50,173 nucleotides of DNA, taken from Nanobdellota archaeon. GTDB taxonomy: Archaea; Nanobdellota; Nanobdellia; Pacearchaeales; GW2011-AR1. Below are positions 3,363 through 32,548 of this stretch, piece by piece. Both the position numbers and the translations under genes were made by a program. Under the pieces are notes generated by a model, which saw nothing but the letters and a program-made list of their open reading frames with translations, was not told the origin of the DNA and ran no database searches. How positions within the stretch are numbered: the first letter of the stretch is position 1; each line of letters starts with the position of its first letter. The stretch is from the NCBI GenBank assembly GCA_039714095.1, contig JBDLJZ010000002.1, positions 1 to 50,173 of the forward strand. The letters are read 5' to 3'.

Positions 3363-3507
3363 ATTATTTTTGAAGCATAACAAAAATTTCAAAAATAATC
3401 CCAAAGGGCGAGTGTTTCAATGATTACGAGTATAAAGATTTTTAAAAAAATCTACAATAAATTTAAATACTTAAAATAATAAAAAACAAAATGGACAAAA
3501 AATTAAA

Positions 3508-3654
3508 TATGCGATTTTCGTCAGATTGCACGAAAAAAATCGCCCCCCAAATGAAGGGAATGGTTAAGCCGAAGTTATTGGAAAGCGACAAAAGTCAAAC
3601 ACTAATAACGACTTTTCAATGGCTGAGCCAAAGGAAACCGCAGGTGTCCTAGCA
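3508..3654 (+). repeat. G+C-rich structured repeat, family 1, copy B (H1 + H2 + tail, abuts the rpoP ATG)
   Basis: H1 at 3511..3543 is identical to copy A. H2 is an imperfect long hairpin at 3571..3629. The tail aaaggaaaccgcaggtgtcctagca precedes ATG 3655. Confidence 0.6.
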
Positions 3655-3792
3655 ATGACAACTTACAAATGTTTCAAATGCGGGGAAAAAATAAAAAACC
3701 AAGATTTAGATAAAAGATTTGTTTGTCCACATTGCGGAAGTTTAATTTTTTTTAAATCAAGAACAAAATTAAGAACACTAAAAACAGACTAA
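3655..3792 (+). CDS. rpoP: DNA-directed RNA polymerase subunit P (Rpo12), 45 aa, below the ORF-track cutoff
   Basis: Own translation: MTTYKCFKCGEKIKNQDLDKRFVCPHCGSLIFFKSRTKLRTLKTD. CxxC..CxxC zinc ribbon. The stop overlaps the next ATG (TAATG). Matches the rpl37ae-rpoP-pfdB gene order I recall for archaea. Confidence 0.75.
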   Translation: MTTYKCFKCGEKIKNQDLDKRFVCPHCGSLIFFKSRTKLRTLKTD

Positions 3793-4106
3793 TGGAACAA
3801 AATAACTCTATACAAGAAATGCAAATGATTGAACAAAACCTTCAAAATATTTTAATGCAAAAACAAGCTTTTCAAATGGAATTTTCTGAAACACAAGGCT
3901 CATTAAAAGAAGTAAAAGAATCCAATGATGAGGTTTTTAAAATTGTAGGACAATTTATGATAAAGACAAATAGAGACAAAATAACAGAAGAATTAACTAA
4001 TAAAGAAAAAATAATTGATTTAAGAATTAAATCTCTTGAAAAACAAGAAGCAACATTTTCAGAGCAATTGACAAAATTAAGGGATAAAGCACTAAAGAAG
4101 AATTAA
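3792..4106 (+). CDS. pfdB: prefoldin beta subunit
   Basis: 104-aa coiled-coil / beta-hairpin / coiled-coil pattern (..DEVFKIVGQFMIKTNRDKITEEL..). Position is immediately after rpoP. Confidence 0.7.
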   Translation: MEQNNSIQEMQMIEQNLQNILMQKQAFQMEFSETQGSLKEVKESNDEVFKIVGQFMIKTNRDKITEELTNKEKIIDLRIKSLEKQEATFSEQLTKLRDKALKKN

Positions 4107-4126
4107 TATACAAAAGTCACGAAATC

Positions 4127-4134
4127 TTTATAAA
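4127..4134 (+). promoter_or_regulatory. putative TATA box (TTTATAAA) about 26 nt upstream of the sepF ATG (leaderless-type spacing)
   Basis: The sequence ctTTTATAAAtat is centred 26 nt before ATG 4156. The same box and spacing recur before other genes. Confidence 0.4.
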
Positions 4135-4155
4135 TATCTTACATATAAAATTAAT

Positions 4156-4548
4156 ATGGTATTCAATAAAATAAGAAAAGCCTTGTCAGATTCTTCTGTT
4201 GATTCTTTTGAAGATGAATATTTAGAAATTGATTTAGAACAACAAAATAAAAAAGAAAAAAAAGTAATGGTAAAACTTTTCTCATTAAAACAATACGAAG
4301 ATGTTAATGATATTCTAAATTCTTTAAGAGAAGGCTATACAATTGCAGTTATTGATATACAAGTTTTGAGAAAAAAAGATTCTATTGAGTTAAAACGAGC
4401 AATTTCTAAATTAAAGAAAACAACAGATGCTCTCGAGGGAAACATTGCAGGATTTGGAGAAAATATAGTTATTGTAACTCCTTCTTTTGCACAAATACAC
4501 AAAGAAGTTTTACAGCCAAAAAAAGAAGGCGGATTTGATACTTATTAG
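4156..4548 (+). CDS. sepF: cell division protein SepF (FtsZ anchor)
   Basis: C-terminal SepF-like core: LREGYTIAVIDIQVL..LKRAISKLKKTTDALEGNIAGFGENIVIVTP. ftsZ is present in the same window. Confidence 0.7.
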   Translation: MVFNKIRKALSDSSVDSFEDEYLEIDLEQQNKKEKKVMVKLFSLKQYEDVNDILNSLREGYTIAVIDIQVLRKKDSIELKRAISKLKKTTDALEGNIAGFGENIVIVTPSFAQIHKEVLQPKKEGGFDTY

Positions 4549-4556
4549 TTCAAAAC

Positions 4557-4564
4557 TTTTATAA
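4557..4564 (+). promoter_or_regulatory. putative TATA box (TTTTATAA) about 27 nt upstream of the dph2 ATG
   Basis: The sequence acTTTTATAAct lies before ATG 4587. Confidence 0.4.
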
Positions 4565-4586
4565 CTCTCTCTAATTTATTTCTTAT

Positions 4587-5198
4587 ATGAAAACTTTGTT
4601 TATTCCAGCAAAATCAACTTTACAAATTACAGATTTAGAAATAAAATCTCTATCAAAAAAACTTCCTAAAAATTTCACAATTGCTTATTCTATACAATAT
4701 AAAGAATTAGCAGAAAAAATAAAATTAAATCTTTCCAAAAAACACAAAATAAATTCATTTATTCAAGTCTTAGGTTGTAGTAAACCAAAATTACCAAAAA
4801 GCACAAAATCAGTCTTATTAATAAGTGATGGAAAATTTCACGCAACTTCTTTAGCCTACGAAACAAAAATTCCAGTTTACCTATTTACTAGTGGAATTTT
4901 AGAAAAAATTTCAAAAAAAGAAATAGAAATTTTTTCAAAAAAACAAAAAGGCGCTTACTTGAAATATCTTCACGCAGAAAAAATAGGAATTTTAATTTCA
5001 ACAAAATCTGGACAAGAAAATCTCAAAAAAGCAATAGATTTTCAAAAGAAAATAAAAAATAAAAAATCTTACCTATTTATTAGTAATAATATAGATACAA
5101 ATGAATTTGAAAATTTTCAAATAGATTCATGGATTAATACTTCTTGTCCAAGAATGGATATGAATGAAGGTTCTATAATTAATATTAGCAAGATTTAG
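4587..5198 (+). CDS. dph2: compact Dph2-like protein (diphthamide synthesis, radical-SAM-type 4Fe-4S)
   Basis: VLGCS, DGKFHATS and NTSCPRM resemble the three Cys-containing Dph2 motifs as I recall them. At 203 aa it is shorter than I recall for archaeal Dph2 (roughly 330 aa). Confidence 0.5.
   Translation: MKTLFIPAKSTLQITDLEIKSLSKKLPKNFTIAYSIQYKELAEKIKLNLSKKHKINSFIQVLGCSKPKLPKSTKSVLLISDGKFHATSLAYETKIPVYLFTSGILEKISKKEIEIFSKKQKGAYLKYLHAEKIGILISTKSGQENLKKAIDFQKKIKNKKSYLFISNNIDTNEFENFQIDSWINTSCPRMDMNEGSIINISKI
5154..5198. repeat. direct repeat copy 1 (functional dph2 3' end)
   Basis: ATGGATATGAATGAAGGTTCTATAATTAATATTAGCAAGATTTAG matches 6529..6573 at 41 of 45 positions. Confidence 0.8.
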
Positions 5199-5199
5199 T

Positions 5200-5487
5200 C
5201 TAATATTCTGTTTGCATATATTCGCAGACTATATTTATTATTTTTTTAATTGTTTCATTGCAATTTTTAAATTTTAAATCATTCAAGATGATAACCCCAA
5301 ATTCTCTTATAATATCACTTATTAATGCATGTATAAACGATTGCGTTGCAGACTCAACTCCTTCAAAATCTAAAATAACTTCTTCATTTTTTCTTAAATT
5401 TGGAATGATTTGTGATACTCTAATTTCTTTAGCAGTATCTTTATTTTCTGCAAAATTTCCTACTTTGTCTAATAATTTTATTTCCAT
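5200..5487 (-). CDS. STAS-like (DUF4325-type) small protein
   Basis: 95 aa. ..EVILDFEGVESATQSFIHALISDIIREFG.. is typical of DUF4325/anti-anti-sigma-like folds. Separated from the upstream GHKL ATPase by 1 nt. Confidence 0.6.
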   Translation of the reverse strand: MEIKLLDKVGNFAENKDTAKEIRVSQIIPNLRKNEEVILDFEGVESATQSFIHALISDIIREFGVIILNDLKFKNCNETIKKIINIVCEYMQTEY

Positions 5488-5488
5488 A

Positions 5489-6448
5489 TTAAATGAACTT
5501 TGGTCTTTTGTATCTTTTTTTATTTAATTCTTTTCTTGTTTTTGAATAAACAGCTTTGATTTTATCTAAGAAATTATTAAAATCTATATTTTCATTTAAA
5601 CATAAATCAATAGCTACAATAGTTCCATTCCAATTTGGCAAATTTTCTTCTACTGAATAATGATCTTTTAATGGGTCTGATATAAATTTAATAGTTTGTT
5701 TTTTAGGTGTTTTTAATAATTTATACATAGAATCTCCACTATAAATTAAGAAATAGTTTCTACTTAATTTTATTAATGATTTTATAAAAAATAATCCTGC
5801 ACCTGCATTTTGTTCACTTCCTCCTATTTTTTTTGTAGTTCCAGTTATTCCTGGTTGTAACGCAAGGGATAAAGCTTCTAGATTTGTTTTTGGATTATAA
5901 TTATTTAGAGATTTTTTTATTCCTATGCCAATATCTACAACGCCAATTCTTATTTTATTACATTTAGGGTAATATTGCGCACATATAATAGCACCTTCTT
6001 TTGAATAAGAATGCTCAAGGACATTTCTTACCAATTCACTAATAACATATTCTATTGATTTTAATTTATCTGGCTTATGTAAAAGGGGAATCATATCTCT
6101 TATAAAATTCTCAAGTTGATTAGAATTTTTAATTAATTGAATCGGGATGAATCTTCCAGATTCTTCATGCTTGTTTATACTCATTTCAGAATTTAAATTC
6201 AATAATTTGAAAACACCCATCCTTTCTAAATAATGTTTTGATTTAGCTTCCATTTTATTAAAATGTAAATTTTTTTTATTTTTTAATTTAAGTCCCAGTG
6301 CCACAATAATACATAATACGAAAGGGTGTAGAGAAACCCATTTCTCATGTGAAGTTATAATTAATTCATCTTCGTTATTTGTATCAAGAGATTTTAAGAA
6401 ACTATTAATATTTCCAATCCATGCTCCTGCAGGTAAGTGTATTTTCAT
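5489..6448 (-). CDS. GHKL (histidine-kinase-like / RsbW-SpoIIAB-like) ATPase with an unknown N-terminal domain
   Basis: N-box ELVRNVLEHS, G1 box VDIGIGI, G2 box GAGLFFIKSL. The roughly 130-aa N-terminal domain (YLERMGVFKLL..GRFIPIQLI) is unassigned. Confidence 0.7.
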   Translation of the reverse strand: MKIHLPAGAWIGNINSFLKSLDTNNEDELIITSHEKWVSLHPFVLCIIVALGLKLKNKKNLHFNKMEAKSKHYLERMGVFKLLNLNSEMSINKHEESGRFIPIQLIKNSNQLENFIRDMIPLLHKPDKLKSIEYVISELVRNVLEHSYSKEGAIICAQYYPKCNKIRIGVVDIGIGIKKSLNNYNPKTNLEALSLALQPGITGTTKKIGGSEQNAGAGLFFIKSLIKLSRNYFLIYSGDSMYKLLKTPKKQTIKFISDPLKDHYSVEENLPNWNGTIVAIDLCLNENIDFNNFLDKIKAVYSKTRKELNKKRYKRPKFI

Positions 6449-6488
6449 ACTATTTAATAAATATAAAACTTATTAAAACCTTTCTTTT

Positions 6489-6505
6489 TACCAGGATTCC
6501 TGGTA
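6489..6505. promoter_or_regulatory. palindrome TACCAGG-att-CCTGGTA upstream of the GHKL gene promoter
   Basis: 7-bp perfect arms. It lies about 40-55 nt upstream of ATG 6448 on the minus strand, just beyond a TTTTATATTTA box. Confidence 0.3.
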
Positions 6506-6528
6506 AAATCCACATAACATCTTGCCTA

Positions 6529-6573
6529 ATAGATATGAATGAGGGTTCTATAATTAATATTAGTAAGATTAAC
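6529..6573. repeat. direct repeat copy 2 (displaced relic of the dph2 3' end, still reads IDMNEGSIINISKIN-stop)
   Basis: ATAGATATGAATGAGGGTTCTATAATTAATATTAGTAAGATTAAC. Weaker similarity continues about 20 nt upstream (catcttgcctaat versus cttcttgtccaagaat). Confidence 0.8.
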
Positions 6574-6796
6574 TAAATATTCCATGTTCAATTCTTTCAA
6601 GTTCTTGTTCAACCTGAAAATATTTGTTTGCTTCACAATATTCATTAGGAGATGAATTTCCTAAGGCAATGCAAGGTGTATTATACCATTCTATTGCTTT
6701 ATTAATTTCACCTTCAAAAACATCAACAATTTTTTCAGCAAATTTTTTCCCTGCTGTTTCACACATATTTTCAAGTTTTTTATTTGGTTTATCCAT
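6569..6796 (-). CDS. DUF2384 (Xre/MbcA/ParS-type) antitoxin-like protein, no RES-type partner nearby
   Basis: AIEWYNTPCIALGNSSPNEYC....ELERIEHGIF matches the W..P...LgG.sP / L.rie.G pattern of DUF2384. Confidence 0.5.
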   Translation of the reverse strand: MDKPNKKLENMCETAGKKFAEKIVDVFEGEINKAIEWYNTPCIALGNSSPNEYCEANKYFQVEQELERIEHGIFS

Positions 6797-9949: not shown

Positions 9950-11230
9950 CTAATCCTTATACAAAAAAACAAAAGTTTTTCCAGAAAGTTTTTTATTGAT
10001 CAATCCATTTTTTTCTAAAAGAAATAAATCAGTTCTTGCAGTTTGATAAACAATGCCATAAGTTTCAGAAATTTCTTTAATAGTAAATAATTTTGATTGA
10101 TATTTTGTAAATTCTTCAAAAATTAAAGCTTGCCTCAAATTTAAATCTGGATTATTTTTTATTAATTCTTTTGTTTTTTTCTGTTCCTTTTGTTGTATTT
10201 TAATATATTCAATTAAGTCATTTAGAGTATCCTCAACACTATTTAATATATATTTTATAAAATATGTTAAATCCATATTATCATATTCTGTGTATAAATA
10301 AGATAAATCATAATTCTTTCTAGAACGAAGAATTCTTTTAGAAACTGCCATATATTCAAACAACCAATAACCTTGAGAAATCATATACCAATAAAAAATA
10401 CTTCTTGCAGACCTTCCATTTCCATCATTAAAAGGATGAATATATCCTATTAGAAAATGTAAAATAATCCCTTTAACTATTGGGTGAATAAATTCTTCTG
10501 AATTGTTATTAGCAAAATTGCAAAATTCATCAATTAAATTTTGTACTTCCTTGTATTTAGGAGGAATATGAGCAATTACTTCATCATCTCTAACCATTAT
10601 GTCATCATTGTCTCTAAATTTTCCTTCATCTGCAGAATCGTCTAAAGTGTTTTTAGTAACGGTTTTTTGTATTTCTAAGATTAGCTCAGGAGTAATTTTT
10701 TTATTTTTTTGTTTATGTATAAATTGCATTGTTTCATAATTATTAGAAATCATTTTTTCAGACTCAGTTCTTGGTTTTCTTTTTTCCCTAAGCATAGCCT
10801 TGGCAACTTTTCTTGTTGTTATTGCACCTTCTAATTGGCTAGATGCTATAGCTTCTTCCATTAAAGAACTAATTAGATAACTTTCTTGAACATTTAATGA
10901 TTTTCCATCTAACTGAATATTTCCAGCTAAATTTTTATCAAATCTATGTAATTTTTTATTAAAATCAGATAATAAACTATGCACCATTTTTATTCCCTTA
11001 AACTTTATTTTTTCATAGTTATCTGAACGAAGCATTTTCATTAATGCCCAAATATATTCTCTTTTTGTTTTATCAGTTATTCTGTATTTTAATTCAGACC
11101 AATATAAATATCTCTTATTATATTCAGAGGCTAATTTTCTAAAATCTTCATTTTTTATAGCCTTTGCAAATCCTTCAAAATCTTTATCAAAAAGTTCTTT
11201 TATTTCAAAGGGTTTTTCTGGCAATTTCAT
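9950..11230 (-). CDS. fic: Fic family AMPylase (class II, N-terminal inhibitory helix) with C-terminal winged-helix domain
   Basis: Fic motif HPFNDGNGRSAR (HxFx[DE]GNGRxxR). Inhibitory motif SSQLEG ([ST]xxxE[GN]) lies upstream of it. The C-terminal LRQALIFEEF...TARTDLFLLEKNGLI is wHTH-like. Confidence 0.85.
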   Translation of the reverse strand: MKLPEKPFEIKELFDKDFEGFAKAIKNEDFRKLASEYNKRYLYWSELKYRITDKTKREYIWALMKMLRSDNYEKIKFKGIKMVHSLLSDFNKKLHRFDKNLAGNIQLDGKSLNVQESYLISSLMEEAIASSQLEGAITTRKVAKAMLREKRKPRTESEKMISNNYETMQFIHKQKNKKITPELILEIQKTVTKNTLDDSADEGKFRDNDDIMVRDDEVIAHIPPKYKEVQNLIDEFCNFANNNSEEFIHPIVKGIILHFLIGYIHPFNDGNGRSARSIFYWYMISQGYWLFEYMAVSKRILRSRKNYDLSYLYTEYDNMDLTYFIKYILNSVEDTLNDLIEYIKIQQKEQKKTKELIKNNPDLNLRQALIFEEFTKYQSKLFTIKEISETYGIVYQTARTDLFLLEKNGLINKKLSGKTFVFLYKD

Positions 11231-11235
11231 TTTAG

Positions 11236-11329
11236 TTTATCTACTAATTTAGTATTCATTAGTAGATTTTAGTAATTAGGACTATTTAAATTTATCTACT
11301 AATTTAGTATTCATTAGTAGATTTTAGTA
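11236..11329. promoter_or_regulatory. two perfect 39-bp direct repeats, each containing a 10-bp perfect palindrome (candidate operator pair upstream of fic)
   Basis: tttatctactaatttagtattcattagtagattttagta occurs at 11236..11274 and 11291..11329. Palindrome arms are ATCTACTAAT / ATTAGTAGAT with a 9-nt spacer. Confidence 0.5.
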
Positions 11330-20260: not shown

Positions 20261-20356
20261 GAAGGGTTACGCCGAAGTTATTGGAGAGCGACAAATGTTA
20301 AAAACCAATAGCGACTTTCCAATGGCTGAGCAAAAGGAAACCGTAGGTGTCCTCGC
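20261..20356 (+). repeat. G+C-rich structured repeat, family 1, copy C (H2 + tail, + orientation between two minus-strand genes)
   Basis: gaagggttacgcc, then the H2 hairpin (20274..20331), then aaaggaaaccgtaggtgtcctcgc. The last base is shared with the stop codon of the upstream gene. Confidence 0.6.
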
Positions 20357-21292: not shown

Positions 21293-21886
21293 TTATTTAA
21301 TTGTAACCAATGCTTCTCCATATTGTTTTTCAATTACAAGTTTAATTTTACCTTTTATATTTTCTACACAAAACGGATTATCTCTTAAAATTGTCTTTGC
21401 TAAATCAAGATGTTTAATCTCTTTTGAATTTAATCCTTCTGAAGACCCCCCAGGATAGAAAAACAAATTTTCATGTTCTTGATGTAATTGTTTTAATTCA
21501 CTAAAATAAATTCTATATTTCCCCCTGTCTCCTGCAGGATAAAGAGAGTAATCTGCAAAGCAAACATGACTTATTTTTGAAGGCAAAAAATATTCTTTTT
21601 CTTGAGAACTTTGGGTTCCTTTCCATGCTTTATCAATATCTGTTTGAAGATTGTTTGCAAATTTTGCAATTTGTGCTGTGTCCCCTAAATTAAGAAATTT
21701 TTTAATTGCAAAAAAAGAAAACGAAATAAAAATTATAATTAATATAATTGAAAAAATCATCCCAAAAGACAATTTCATCTGCCCTTGTTTATCACATCTT
21801 TTGCCCTTTGTAAAAATCTTCGAAGAAGATTTTTCGGGGCCTCGTAGAGGTTCTCGCACCTCCTTGGTGTACGCCTGTGGTGTCAT
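21293..21886 (-). CDS. class III signal peptide (type IV pilin-like) protein whose 5' end is occupied by repeat family 2
   Basis: ..CDKQGQ|MKLSFGMIFSIILIIIFISF. The only in-frame start upstream of the KQGQ site is the repeat's own ATG (MTPQAYTKEVREPLRGPEKSSSKIFTKGK); the next in-frame ATG is the Met immediately after KQGQ. Confidence 0.55.
   Translation of the reverse strand: MTPQAYTKEVREPLRGPEKSSSKIFTKGKRCDKQGQMKLSFGMIFSIILIIIFISFSFFAIKKFLNLGDTAQIAKFANNLQTDIDKAWKGTQSSQEKEYFLPSKISHVCFADYSLYPAGDRGKYRIYFSELKQLHQEHENLFFYPGGSSEGLNSKEIKHLDLAKTILRDNPFCVENIKGKIKLVIEKQYGEALVTIK
21802..21886 (+). repeat. G+C-rich structured repeat, family 2, copy 1
   Basis: Hairpin AAAAATCTTC-gaa-GAAGATTTTT (21812..21834), then cggggcctcgtagaggttctcgcacctccttggtgtacgcctgtggtgtcat. 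Confidence 0.65.
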
Positions 21887-27293: not shown

Positions 27294-28168
27294 TCTCTAA
27301 TCGCTCCTGATGTAATCCCATAACCTGAAGGCCAAATATAACTACGCGAGGCAAACTGAAATTTCTCTCCAGTGTCTCTGTTAGTTAAAATATAAATTGT
27401 TGTTCCATCTCCTTGTTTTTTCTTTTCAACTTTTAAATCATGATAAAAATTCATATAAGTTGTTGTCTCGCTGTCTCCATATTTTGCTTCAAAATTTAAT
27501 ATACTAATTGCAATGCTAACTAATTCATAAAGATTATTATTCAAAACTATACTAAAGTCCTTGTATCTTTCTGAATCTTCTTTTGTTAATGTTAAAGTGT
27601 GATTAAAATTAGCAACAACTCTTTCAGGAAATAATCTAATTCCCATTTTTCCTAAATTAAGTTTTACATCATAACCTTTTCTTTCGTAACTTTTTTTCAT
27701 TTCTTCAAAACATTCTCTGGATGATTCAGCAATACTGTTTTCTAATTCTTCTTCAATGTGTTGTCTTAAAAACGGTTGTTGCATAACACAAGGTTCATAA
27801 TAATTTGATGTATAACATAAATATTCTAATTTCCCTCCCCCATATAAAAAATAATGTTCAGGATTCAAACTCCCACCATTTGCAGAAATAATACCAATAT
27901 TTTCTTGTATCTGTTCTTCAAGACATAATTGAATAAATTCTGTCGGACTTTTTGCACCAATTCCTAATGTTGTTTGCAACTGAGGATAAAACATATAAAT
28001 AGCAACACCAATCCCAACAATTACAATTGATAAAATAATAAACAATGTAACCTGCCCCTTGTAAACATCTTTGGAAAAGATGTTTCGGGGCCTCGTAGAG
28101 GTTCTCGCACATCCTTGGTGTACACTAAAATATGTGTGTCCTTTTTTGTTTGAATTTTTCTCACCCAT
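27290..28168 (-). CDS. class III signal peptide protein (292 aa), paralog of 32533..33309, with repeat family 2 inserted in its leader
   Basis: ..VYKGQ|VTLFIILSIVIVGIGVAIYMF. EFIQLCLEEQIQENIGIISANGGSLNPE aligns with SFLESCIEEKINEAIDLIAIQGGNIKPE of the 258-aa paralog. Confidence 0.6.
   Translation of the reverse strand: MGEKNSNKKGHTYFSVHQGCARTSTRPRNIFSKDVYKGQVTLFIILSIVIVGIGVAIYMFYPQLQTTLGIGAKSPTEFIQLCLEEQIQENIGIISANGGSLNPEHYFLYGGGKLEYLCYTSNYYEPCVMQQPFLRQHIEEELENSIAESSRECFEEMKKSYERKGYDVKLNLGKMGIRLFPERVVANFNHTLTLTKEDSERYKDFSIVLNNNLYELVSIAISILNFEAKYGDSETTTYMNFYHDLKVEKKKQGDGTTIYILTNRDTGEKFQFASRSYIWPSGYGITSGAIRE
28053..28125 (+). repeat. G+C-rich structured repeat, family 2, copy 3
   Basis: Hairpin AAACATCTTT-gga-AAAGATGTTT (28063..28085), then cggggcctcgtagaggttctcgcacatccttggtgtacac. 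Confidence 0.65.
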
Positions 28169-31900: not shown

Positions 31901-32548
31901 ATCTGATGAAATATCTCCACATAGTTCTTCAGGTATTGTATCATCAAAAATTCCACCTTGCAAATCACACCAAGCTTGCGAATTGTATTGTGTATTTGTT
32001 CCTAAATCCTGACAACAACCAAGAGTACATTCATCTGCTTCATTAAACCATTCTCCATTATTTTCTTCACAAGTAATTCTAGGAGATAGGGCAGAGCATA
32101 AACCATCTGTACCAATACAATCTCCCAATTTACAAAATGTTGTTGAACCACAATCTGATTGCACATTTGTAGTATCACAATCCTCTTGCAATACATCTTC
32201 TTGACAAAATGCTCCTTCTGTTGTTTTCTCACAGCAAGTTGTCGCCGAAACAAAACCAATTTGATTTATTGATAAAAATCCAACTACTAAGTTTAAACTT
32301 GACTTAATTATTTTTTTAGAAATTTCACTTATCTCTGAATTAATTTTTATTTCTTCACTATTAAGATTATAACTTTGAGCAATAGTAAAATTAATTAGTA
32401 AAATTATTTGAAATATACTAAAAATTAAAATTATTTTTCTGCCCTCAGTAAAAATTTTTGCAGAAGATTTTTCGGGGCCTCGAAGAGGTTCTTGTGCTGG
32501 GAGCTTTAGCGAGGCAGTATACGCCTGTGGTGTCATCCTATAATACAC
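28898..32548 (-). CDS. 1216-aa giant cysteine-rich surface protein (a fused equivalent of the 562-aa + 807-aa pair)
   Basis: The N-terminal half is collinear with 24951..26639 and the C-terminal half with 21931..24354 (FSCEPWEPPARSQECDKCNEGEFPCTEYKCWSLGKNCE). The track start is GTG 32548. ATG 32536 (MTPQAY) overlaps the upstream stop as ATGA and may be the real start. Confidence 0.75.
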   Translation of the reverse strand: MYYRMTPQAYTASLKLPAQEPLRGPEKSSAKIFTEGRKIILIFSIFQIILLINFTIAQSYNLNSEEIKINSEISEISKKIIKSSLNLVVGFLSINQIGFVSATTCCEKTTEGAFCQEDVLQEDCDTTNVQSDCGSTTFCKLGDCIGTDGLCSALSPRITCEENNGEWFNEADECTLGCCQDLGTNTQYNSQAWCDLQGGIFDDTIPEELCGDISSDANGACVYQVNGENNCEFNSGAECIESRTFHEGSLCSNEGLDTICTKQESINCLDEKIYWFDSCGNMENVYEGNTPALKDESWNQGFVKIVGSQVCTIDVNNPNNLDTCGNCDSVFNTCKPVDSSETHVAEDNFVCADLSCVDETDNNKERKNGESWCVYEGQVGEYINDETGVQISSDIPGSSHYRKSCIQGEITTINCGVYRENICGEHAVEIGEGESAISYTEATCRPNMGLNCFGIENVEDCEDESDCRMQNINVVKDDEVDFFKFDVCVPKYPQGFNPIYSAEDDESVCSFASMSCPIIQQYKAKCVAWEPIWGCLILERVYLDYIANKECDKNPERFYSQMNDFCVSLGDCAGYVNTVGNYTGKDSLKERYVRINNTPEENNSPTFANLASSLGSSSSTILNLINSQLGEIECVEIEGEQVCEETLDEGSRGLLKFRQVNQVGGLIGIYANYIVTIVAAIIELVVFNWQQGDKIGKLEKSEVSFSCEPWEPPARSQECDKCNEGEFPCTEYKCWSLGKNCEVLVEEEGVATDEVICVKKELDPTPPVINFNVGSFSGDLTTTIQSNGALETGIIITNNSNENGCVEGNTLLNFNLTTDKDEENKFARCIWGTAPSDLTSYKTDWIGRPTSGFVWTKENNFEIRVASFSDNCLGEDGEFNVYVRCEGHEGNAQLTAYNIQMCVNPTPDIRPPIIKEFSPEDGSYLIFGNDTLDSPKIYANEPLVECGYSFDETTNYEDMTKSLFCEGYIRDDDSCFPRLKYGCDFADITGLSTSDPNKLYFKCNDTQGNVNIAYKEYTINPSISTLKITSATPTEYNQVSSATGDYEMTLRVTTSGGADGTGIAKCYFPSGDLLSSDLDPQLEFFDTDTTMHTQNLFFVSGDYNIPIMCEDSTGNVAEESIVFTLEIDNTSPEIAVIYRSGSLLGIETHKKSRCYYNNDILKKCNFEMNTTTLMEPGFEATIEHYVEWNSEKTYYIKCKDNLENVGTCVSISPSAF
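32440..32536 (+). repeat. G+C-rich structured repeat, family 2, copy 2 (diverged middle)
   Basis: tgccctcagtAAAAATTTTtgcagAAGATTTTTcggggcctcgaagaggttc...acgcctgtggtgtcat. Confidence 0.6.

Follow-up and report, generated by a model that had tools for sequence, protein, structure and literature searches.

A mobile two-gene GHKL kinase–STAS cassette inserted at the 3' end of dph2 in an archaeon of the Nanobdellota

How do two genes come to lie between two copies of the end of a third? This question is raised by a stretch of 50,173 nt from a Nanobdellota archaeon (GenBank assembly GCA_039714095.1, contig JBDLJZ010000002.1), here called the window, a DPANN-type archaeal segment of 29% GC that encodes FtsZ, SecE, Spt5, L11, SepF and dph2. 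The last 45 nt of dph2 are found twice, and the DNA between the copies carries, as its sole genes, a gene for a GHKL-type kinase/ATPase (K) and a gene for a STAS-like protein of the DUF4325 family (S), both on the minus strand and 1 nt apart, just as a preliminary description of the window had stated. Here, we show that this cassette is an insertion that duplicated its target, and that its relatives occupy unrelated sites in archaea and bacteria. The reading that in our opinion probably accounts for the locus is that of a mobile, VapKS-like cassette which entered the end of dph2, duplicated the target and would act as an autoregulated phospho-switch.

The insertion at the end of dph2

The empty site is present in five relatives (L009, L010, L098, L099 and L100) whose Dph2 proteins are 80-84% identical to that of the window. 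In these genomes (L009, L010, L098, L099, L100/L101) the order prefoldin–SepF–dph2–(small gene)–membrane protein is kept without the cassette. The flanks of L009 and L010 have 82-85% nucleotide identity to the window, and since the left flank of the window aligns to L009 up to position 1120 and the right flank from position 1079 onwards, 42 nt of the empty site are doubled. Cassette-free synteny in five relatives therefore demonstrates an insertion, and this insertion duplicated target DNA. The preliminary description had already proposed an insertion and named the empty site as the thing to look for; its alternative, a cassette that is universally present at this site, is contradicted by the same five genomes.

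The duplication is far above chance. Positions 5154-5198 and 6529-6573 are identical at 40 of 45 positions, and at 41 of 45 when both are moved one base to the left (5153/6528); the repeat described before is real, but the 41 identities assigned to it belong to the shifted frame. A repeat search of the window returned the two copies as 43 nt at 93%. Only eight pairs with at least 38/45 exist in the whole 50-kb window, the others being separate, unrelated repeat families. The best 30-nt ungapped match was 29/30 for the dph2 copies and at most 21/30 in 150 trials with non-cognate flank pairs from other loci. Gapped alignment confirmed the weaker similarity previously noticed upstream of the repeat (ACTTCTTGTCCAAGAATG vs ACATCTTGCCT---AATA), and downstream the similarity runs about 12 nt further, into the stop regions. 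An independent Logan contig (L001, SRR27843389) has the same arrangement with both copies.

Which of the copies is the old one can be read from their differences. Copy 2 is still traversed by an open reading frame (ORF; 6421-6576) that reads ...IDMNEGSIINISKIN-stop, as had been observed before. It retains the ancestral ...KIN-stop ending and the 8-nt overlap with the adjacent Xre-like gene, but the conserved Met of CPRMDMN is changed to Ile and 3 nt are deleted just upstream. The Dph2 proteins of the relatives end with ...SKIN or ...SKVS, at 204 aa. The ancestral ending and overlap, together with the lost Met and the deletion, mark copy 2 as the displaced, decaying end of dph2; copy 1, which is separated by 1 nt from the stop codon of the S gene, is the working end. 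The Dph2 of the window matches Pfam positions 64-275 of 302, a short form that is typical of this DPANN clade and is shared by all close relatives (203-206 aa at 80-84% identity).

The Xre-like gene next to copy 2, formerly assigned to DUF2384, had been connected with the cassette. This connection does not hold. Homologues are found at the same position in L009 and L010 (65% and 49% identity in tblastn), and in the empty-site loci L009, L010 and L099 a small convergent gene overlaps dph2 (203-204 aa) by 8 nt; the gene at this position in L099 is an unannotated one of 68 aa, and L098 and L100 have none there. As the overlap is present in empty-site relatives, the gene is older than the insertion and does not belong to the cassette; it is itself variable among the relatives. 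In the window it is an orphan, with no RES/MbcT-type toxin beside it.

Table 1 Features of the window at and around the cassette
Feature	Position	Strand	Evidence and remarks
dph2, 203 aa	4587..5198	+	PF01866 1.7e-29; target gene; 3' end = repeat copy 1
Repeat copy 1, working dph2 3' end (...MDMNEGSIINISKI-stop)	5154..5198	+	sequence; L009 alignment
S gene, 95-aa DUF4325 STAS-like protein, VapS type	5200..5487	-	PF14213 9.7e-16
K gene, 319 aa	5489..6448	-	weak HATPase_c_2 6.9e-5, under Pfam cut-off; HATPase_c also weak
Putative cassette promoter, TATA-like TTTTAATAAG	6469..6485 (box 6469-6478)	-	read from sequence
Predicted operator, perfect 23-bp palindrome TTTTACCAGGATTCCTGGTAAAA	6486..6508		variant of family consensus TACCGGGAWTCCCGGTA
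Repeat copy 2, original dph2 3' end, dead remnant (...IDMNEGSIINISKIN-stop)	6529..6576	+	L009/L010 alignment
Xre_MbcA_ParS_C-like gene (former DUF2384), 75 aa	6569..6796	-	PF09722 1e-6; pre-existing neighbour

The K–S pair, its operator and its distribution

The closest described relatives of the pair are bacterial. CapK, a kinase with helix-turn-helix (HTH), STAS and GHKL domains, is switched on by single-stranded DNA (ssDNA) and phosphorylates the repressor CapS, a STAS protein with a winged HTH (wHTH); VapK (STAS-GHKL) phosphorylates VapS (STAS plus a C-terminal helix), by which the PIN toxin VapC is freed and protection against phages is brought about (Chambers et al., EMBO J 2026, PMC13373217). 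K consists of an N-terminal alpha/beta domain (residues 1 to about 125), a GHKL kinase/ATPase domain and a basic C-terminal helix that ends in YK(R/K)PxFI. All its GHKL motifs, the N-box E138/N142, G1 D172xGxG176 and G2 G216AG218, are invariant across the family. Alignment of K with VapK from Escherichia coli (L097:3103-3993) by hhalign gave a probability of 96.9% and E = 1.9e-10 for 136 columns over the GHKL domain, and BLASTP gave 30% identity over 115 aa (E = 1e-11), which indicates that the GHKL domains of K and VapK are homologous. The SpoIIAB model of NCBIfam is matched at 8.7e-5, the NCBIfam scores being far under the equivalog cut-offs (22 vs 135 bits). The AlphaFold2 (AF2) model of K has a mean predicted local distance difference test (pLDDT) score of 81.7 and a predicted template modelling (TM) score of 0.84; Foldseek matched it weakly to Topo VI-B, and to SpoIIAB with a target-normalised TM-score of 0.56-0.65. 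The GHKL assignment of the preliminary description is thus upheld by the match to VapK, and the N-terminal domain, for which it had no counterpart, gives no significant match here either: comparison with PDB sequences was negative, and the idea that this domain is a paralogue of S was rejected at the sequence level (hhalign probability 0.5%).

S is likewise what it was taken for, a DUF4325 protein. Its profile matched one solved structure in the PDB, 'Escherichia VapS' 9z7o (E = 0.0045, alignment inspected), and PF14213 is carried by all 19 VapS homologues found. With 95 aa, S ends with the STAS fold; VapS has 116 aa. Ser48 of VapS (chain residue 66, if a tag of 18 residues is assumed) aligns to Gln49 of S, itself an invariant residue, between Thr48 and Ser50, both of which are invariant in 30 sequences. 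In 79 of 80 loci K is followed by a DUF4325 gene, and the remaining locus runs off the end of its contig; K and S are fused in the proteins P0253, P0362, P0369, P0384 and P0386 and also in phrog_5816. K and S are thus strictly linked, and S belongs to the same Pfam family as VapS. In a metagenomic variant of the L002-type insertion (L005, 1143-1458), no DUF4325 gene was called, tblastn still giving a match of 75.8% identity; the S gene may be disrupted in this population variant. A literature search on 'DUF4325' returned incidental mentions only.

The TATA-like box and the palindrome at 6489..6505 that had been noticed upstream of K are both confirmed. The box lies 21-30 nt upstream of the K start codon and is adjoined by an A/G-rich stretch resembling a B recognition element (BRE), and a TTTAA(T/G)AA box is found at the equivalent place in L002, L008 and L093; the K mRNA is therefore predicted to be leaderless or to have a short leader. 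The core of the palindrome, TACCAGGATTCCTGGTA, extends to a perfect 23-mer. It had been regarded as part of the scar of an insertion, but its conservation upstream of K speaks for an operator. The 13-mer CC[GA]GGA[AT]TCC[CT]GG has 99 matches in 767 kb of loci and occurs within 200 nt upstream of K in 74 of the 82 loci. Archaeal loci have it at about -55 to -60 from the ATG, just upstream of BRE/TATA; 22 loci, mostly bacterial, have two copies about 28 nt apart (-53 and -25). The arms of the palindrome covary (G·C 82, A·T 6, mixed 9). Loci devoid of the strict motif have near-variants, wide palindromes that enclose the promoter, or lone TTCCCGGTA half-sites before the ATG. Such paired, wide and lone sites around a promoter amount to a promoter-operator architecture like that of the narrow and wide CapS sites, and the palindrome is a conserved, predicted operator of the cassette. 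This dyad-symmetric promoter site is conserved in archaeal and bacterial hosts alike, and since it accompanies the cassette into hosts whose transcription machineries are unrelated, its binder should be encoded by the cassette. It should be mentioned that a lone TTCCCGGTA just before the ATG is added in several archaeal loci. In L037, a metagenome-assembled genome (MAG) of Saccharibacteria, and L069, an unclassified bacterial MAG, split half-sites are seen 110 nt upstream of K, TACCGGGAATT and, about 21-24 nt further, AATTCCCGGTA, with a putative promoter between them.

A scan of one genome per species in a collection of 185,579 species yielded 421 related stretches, and taxon spread and linkage were read from the best 80 of these, which are 49-85% identical over their full length. 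The best 80 come from Woese-, Pace-, Nano- and Micrarchaeota, from MAGs labelled as Methanosarcinales and Thermoplasmata and from many groups of the candidate phyla radiation (CPR), but also from Elusimicrobia, Omnitrophota, Saganbacteria, Chlamydiae, Actinobacteria, Proteobacteria, Spirochaetia and Planctomycetia. The protein database contains 2,766 relatives. Conservation is strong, with a mean column identity of 71%. The closest relatives (78-85% amino acid identity) are located elsewhere, between Rrp4 and SBDS (L002-L007), between rpl11 and rpl1 (L008) and after the gene for the stalk protein P1 (L093); a scan of metagenomes for close relatives gave only three loci, of which L093 was new. 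The GC content of the cassette is more than 5 points under that of its flanks in 33 of 76 loci and above it in one. Among the 146 genes directly beside the cassette, which represent 155 Pfam families, no partner or orientation recurs, and most are housekeeping genes (His-tRNA synthetase, RuvA, GyrB, RNase HII and Rpr2 among others); integrases and PIN proteins account for 2/146 each, and no conserved third gene stands beside K–S in the surveyed loci. The cassette is a cross-domain mobile module at unrelated sites, in agreement with the earlier view of a mobile kinase/STAS pair with its own promoter. The link to defence that had been drawn at the same time fares less well: it stands in so far as the closest relatives, VapKSC and CapKS, act against phages or in stress and not on sigma factors, but the mostly housekeeping neighbours bear it out only weakly.

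Mode of entry and proposed function

How did the cassette enter? Flanking direct repeats that exceed all of 300 non-cognate null pairs were found in 11 of 78 loci. They measure 336 nt in L079, 113 in L036, 100 in L039, 72 in L034, 70 in L078, about 60 in the window, 54 in L072, 47 in L061, 26 in L082 and 18 in L018, and in L042 the repeat is a complete tRNA-Val. The repeats are specific to their locus and correspond to gene 3' ends (window, L078, L082, L061, L072), to 5' ends (L034, L039) or to a tRNA; one copy always leaves the neighbour gene intact. The closest cassette copies, L002 and L008, have no flank duplication and therefore this footprint is not universal. The inserted DNA has no fixed ends: past the S stop codon it extends for 0-56 nt, and past the operator mostly for 0-126 nt, L036 having about 430 nt. 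Some junctions show microhomology: in the window, the operator end has ATTTACCCATGAATC vs ATTTTACCAGGAATC and the S end has CTAA(A)TATTC, and L034 has an 8-nt CCGGGATT. The 39-mer from the dph2 end, searched with up to 9 mismatches, flanks no other cassette locus, and the assumption of a fixed attP was rejected on this ground. The proposal that the insertion carried a replacement gene end does not find support either: a dph2 end that is unique to the window, together with locus-specific repeats, makes a local duplication of the target at least as likely.

Known classes of mobile elements were considered as well. The repeats enclose K and S only, so the earlier statement that no integrase is present is correct; neither a recombinase gene between the repeats nor a fixed att core shared by the insertions, as expected of an integrative element, was found. 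Terminal inverted repeats (window, L002, L008) and a transposase, the marks of an insertion sequence or transposon, are lacking, and the duplications vary widely in length. An integron gene cassette was dismissed in view of a single cassette among housekeeping genes and a palindrome that lies 5' of the promoter and is a perfect, short and often doubled dyad. Duplications that reach the palindrome were sought in other loci, but apart from the window this holds for L034 alone; the others have 17-126 nt of unrelated DNA in between (about 430 in L036). Some of the duplications deserve mention on their own account. In L042, a MAG of Actinobacteria, tRNA-Val(GAC) is present in full at 4774-4848 and 6267-6339, 100% identical over 73 nt, and brackets the cassette. 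The 336-nt duplication of L079 (Peribacteria; 4490-4825 and 6291-6618) has paired-looking substitutions (GGTGATCTCGATTAGATCGCC vs GGTGGTCCCGACGCGATCACC), which may point to a structured RNA gene; a tRNA was not found in it. In L034, a tyrosine recombinase gene with a C-terminal ...TTQIYTHV motif (4023-4832) stands directly upstream of the upstream repeat copy; it is one of the two integrases counted among the neighbours.

On the reading we hold probable, a self-contained cassette of about 1.33 kb (operator, promoter, K and S) would have entered the last 45-85 nt or so of dph2 and duplicated this stretch, copy 1 keeping the gene complete and copy 2 being left to decay. The duplication would be a by-product of an illegitimate, recombinase-free insertion at offset junctions, and survival would favour those insertions that leave the flanking gene whole. 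K is expected to phosphorylate S on Thr48 or Ser50, and a cassette-encoded dimer, of K, of S or of a K–S complex, would bind the TACCGGGAWTCCCGGTA half-sites and thus autoregulate the operon. The balance between K and S would then be shifted by a stress signal, perhaps, on the model of CapK and VapK, ssDNA. Since a third conserved gene is lacking, the pair itself must hold the output, and it is tempting to speculate that S restrains K, or the reverse, following the logic of a toxin–antitoxin or abortive-infection system; this is the most speculative step. Such a logic would account for the persistence and spread of the pair in very reduced genomes, and its strong conservation would fit as well. 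Our best guess is an autoregulated, toxin–antitoxin-like phospho-switch.

Several observations weigh against this reading. A binder encoded by the cassette is called for, but neither K nor S has a recognisable DNA-binding domain, and Pfam gives no HTH in either. The N-terminal domains of K and E. coli VapK have no sequence similarity by hhalign, and the STAS-like Foldseek matches of the K domain (AF2 pLDDT 81.5) to RsbV, SpoIIAA and MlaB are non-significant (E > 1, TM 0.4-0.5). The association with defence is weak: a few neighbours are AAA_21/AriA/GajA-like, SspH, LmuB, HamB or SoFic matches, and these are raw counts. Viral contigs rarely have the cassette (three distant matches), and the plasmids of PLSDB gave no real cassette match. 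Finally, the two dph2 copies differ at 5/45 and each of them differs from L009 at 3-6 positions (counted by eye), which are too few to place the origin of copy 1.

It is this last point that gives room to another route, which we regard as unlikely: a circular element could have integrated by site-specific or Campbell-type recombination via an att-like segment of about 45 nt from the dph2 end, bringing in copy 1 and displacing copy 2. In its favour, the copies differ (40/45 identical), the ancestral ...KIN end lies one codon beyond that of copy 1, and direct repeats at a gene 3' end, or of a whole tRNA-Val (L042), are the classic att footprint; moreover, a tyrosine recombinase gene adjoins the cassette in L034, flanking repeats would permit excision of a circle and re-entry at the same locus of a related genome, and Campbell-type entry from a donor with the cassette at the same locus is a possible variant. 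However, the repeats enclose no recombinase and integrases are 2/146 among the neighbours, the dph2-end 39-mer is beside no other cassette, and repeats that are locus-specific, 18-336 nt long and at variable distance from the cassette ends leave no place for a fixed attP. Also, no known sequence is nearer to copy 1 in the 39-nt core than copy 2, which has 2 mismatches as compared to at least 3 in any other genome. The palindrome might instead be a dif-, attC- or hairpin-like site for a recombinase acting in trans, an idea to which we give little credence: it sits at the outer boundary of what is conserved, and the target by the upstream junction has a likeness to a half-site (window, ATTTACCCATGAATC vs ATTTTACCAGGAATC; L034, the 8-nt CCGGGATT), but the pairing about 28 nt apart around the promoter and the wide and lone forms are those of an operator like the CapS sites, in most loci with duplications the palindrome stands 17-126 nt off the junction, with non-target DNA in between (L036, about 430 nt), and no matching site exists at the other end of the cassette.

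With respect to function, K–S could be a CapKS-like controller of an adjacent host operon, either dph2 or the Xre-like and membrane protein genes. The tight fit of the cassette against its neighbours and the control of downstream operons by CapK and CapS make this conceivable, yet it is very improbable given 155 Pfam families among 146 neighbours with no recurrent partner, an S protein devoid of the wHTH of CapS, and an S gene that in the window converges on dph2 and so has no gene of the same orientation downstream. A native housekeeping partner-switching pair, or a repeat that arose by chance or in assembly, we consider exceedingly improbable. The former would fit the weak similarity of K to SpoIIAB/RsbW, but the cassette is absent from five syntenic relatives and archaea are not known to have sigma factors; the latter is at odds with a repeat far above chance that is reproduced in an independent Logan contig.

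If the insertion reading with its phospho-switch is taken one step further, K–S may be a complete, hitherto unrecognised addiction or abortive-infection module across domains, sensor, effector and autoregulator in one with neither a DNA-binding nor a toxin domain that can be recognised. It would serve in DPANN, CPR and other reduced genomes, and its recombinase-free insertion would regularly produce long target duplications of variable length that rebuild gene ends. We put this forward tentatively and think it rather doubtful. More broadly, the GHKL-kinase/STAS family, for which control of bacterial immune operons and of a VapC toxin was demonstrated in 2026, would gain a stripped-down two-gene form; this form is freely exchanged among bacteria and archaea and is frequent in the smallest genomes known (DPANN, CPR). 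An operator whose binder should be encoded by the cassette, in proteins with no recognisable DNA-binding domain, is a biochemical puzzle that can be tested directly. The flank duplications illustrate how foreign genes may enter gene-dense genomes while essential neighbours are spared, and, as insertion events that can be dated, they open gene flow in uncultivated lineages to study. If true, the recombinase-free route would be one not yet described for prokaryotic gene cassettes.

The window contains further elements outside the cassette. A Fic/DOC protein with an HTH_DeoR-like C-terminus is encoded at 9950-11230 on the minus strand (PADLOC SoFic match 7.8e-47). Directly upstream of it, at 11229-11328, are two tandem copies of 45 nt (43/45), each with an inverted repeat CTACTAAT..ATTAGTAG, which look like a double operator. 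The equivalent place is taken by a different Fic gene in L010 (26% identity) and by an SLFN_AlbA_2/HATPase_c_4 gene in L009, pointing to a variable spot of defence-like character that is independent of the cassette and lies some 3 kb away. A GC-rich element with the core TTTCGGGGCCTCGTAGAGGTTCTCGCAC after a hairpin-like AAAAATCTTnnAAGATTTTT occurs in three copies (about 21805-21880, 28056-28130 and 32427-32500), all at the 5' ends of minus-strand ORFs, and a second repeat family (GGTTACGCCGAAG...GGAAACCGTAGGTGTCCTCGCAATG) is found at about 2075-2170, 3501-3650 and 20261-20350, one copy lying just before rpl11 and one running into the start of the ORF 3619-3792. Neither family matched Rfam, a scan of the window returning only tRNA-Pro.

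Relation to known kinase–STAS systems

VapKSC shares much of its layout with the cassette. Here as there, K precedes S in tight coupling and both systems are mobile; VapK, too, has an N-terminal domain of about 130 aa in front of the GHKL kinase (297 vs 319 aa). VapS and S are both STAS-like proteins of the DUF4325 family, and in both the second helix carries an invariant Ser/Thr where the phospho-site lies, a site that is predicted by alignment in S. However, vapKSC loci contain the VapC/PIN gene and the cassette has no conserved PIN gene, the C-terminal helix by which VapS blocks VapC (VapS residues 94-116) is lacking in the 95-aa S, and K differs by a non-alignable N-terminal domain and by a basic helix added at the C-terminus. 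Only the cassette clade has the TACCGGGAWTCCCGGTA operator, and this clade is found mainly in hosts from DPANN, CPR and further uncultivated lineages, archaea among them. Of the vapKSC loci, 36% are near defence genes (PMC13373217). Membership in vapKSC was rejected because both VapC and the VapS tail are absent.

CapKS shares with the cassette the pairing of a kinase with a STAS substrate and palindromic operators in narrow and wide spacings; autoregulation would be a common trait as well. Unlike K and S, CapK has an N-terminal HTH and CapS a C-terminal wHTH, the half-site of CapS is TTAA and that of the cassette TACCGGGAA, and CapKS always precede an immune operon whereas no conserved operon is found beside the cassette. 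The operons downstream of CapKS that are under their control are CBASS, Bub and Thoeris (PMC13373217). In the absence of HTH, wHTH and a controlled operon, membership in capKS was rejected, too. The K–S pair is a toxin-less form of the VapKS/CapKS kinase–STAS modules and a distant relative of VapK/VapS.

The partner-switching pairs SpoIIAB–SpoIIAA and RsbW–RsbV also combine a GHKL Ser/Thr kinase with a single-domain STAS protein, and phosphorylation within K–S would be the corresponding reaction. SpoIIAB is the best NCBIfam match of K and its best sequence match among PDB structures. K is, however, twice as large with extra domains, and the pair is mobile and cross-domain, not a fixed developmental circuit; the PP2C family is not among the 25 most frequent neighbour families, and there is no sigma-factor target. 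A further likeness is to DrmA of DISARM (PDLC02567), as the PADLOC profile carries the K+S region at its N-terminus: K 45-247 and S 24-88 match positions 49-250 and 326-389 (6.3e-20 and 8.8e-5). These matches are confined to positions 49-389 of 1750, and the other ~1,350, presumably the helicase part, have no counterpart; no drm genes were found among the window ORFs scanned. Type II and VII toxin–antitoxin systems, finally, resemble the cassette in their two translationally coupled genes, a palindromic operator, wide horizontal transfer and scattered loci, and probably in autoregulation; for K–S, toxicity and its neutralisation are proposals, and either partner would be a candidate for the toxin.

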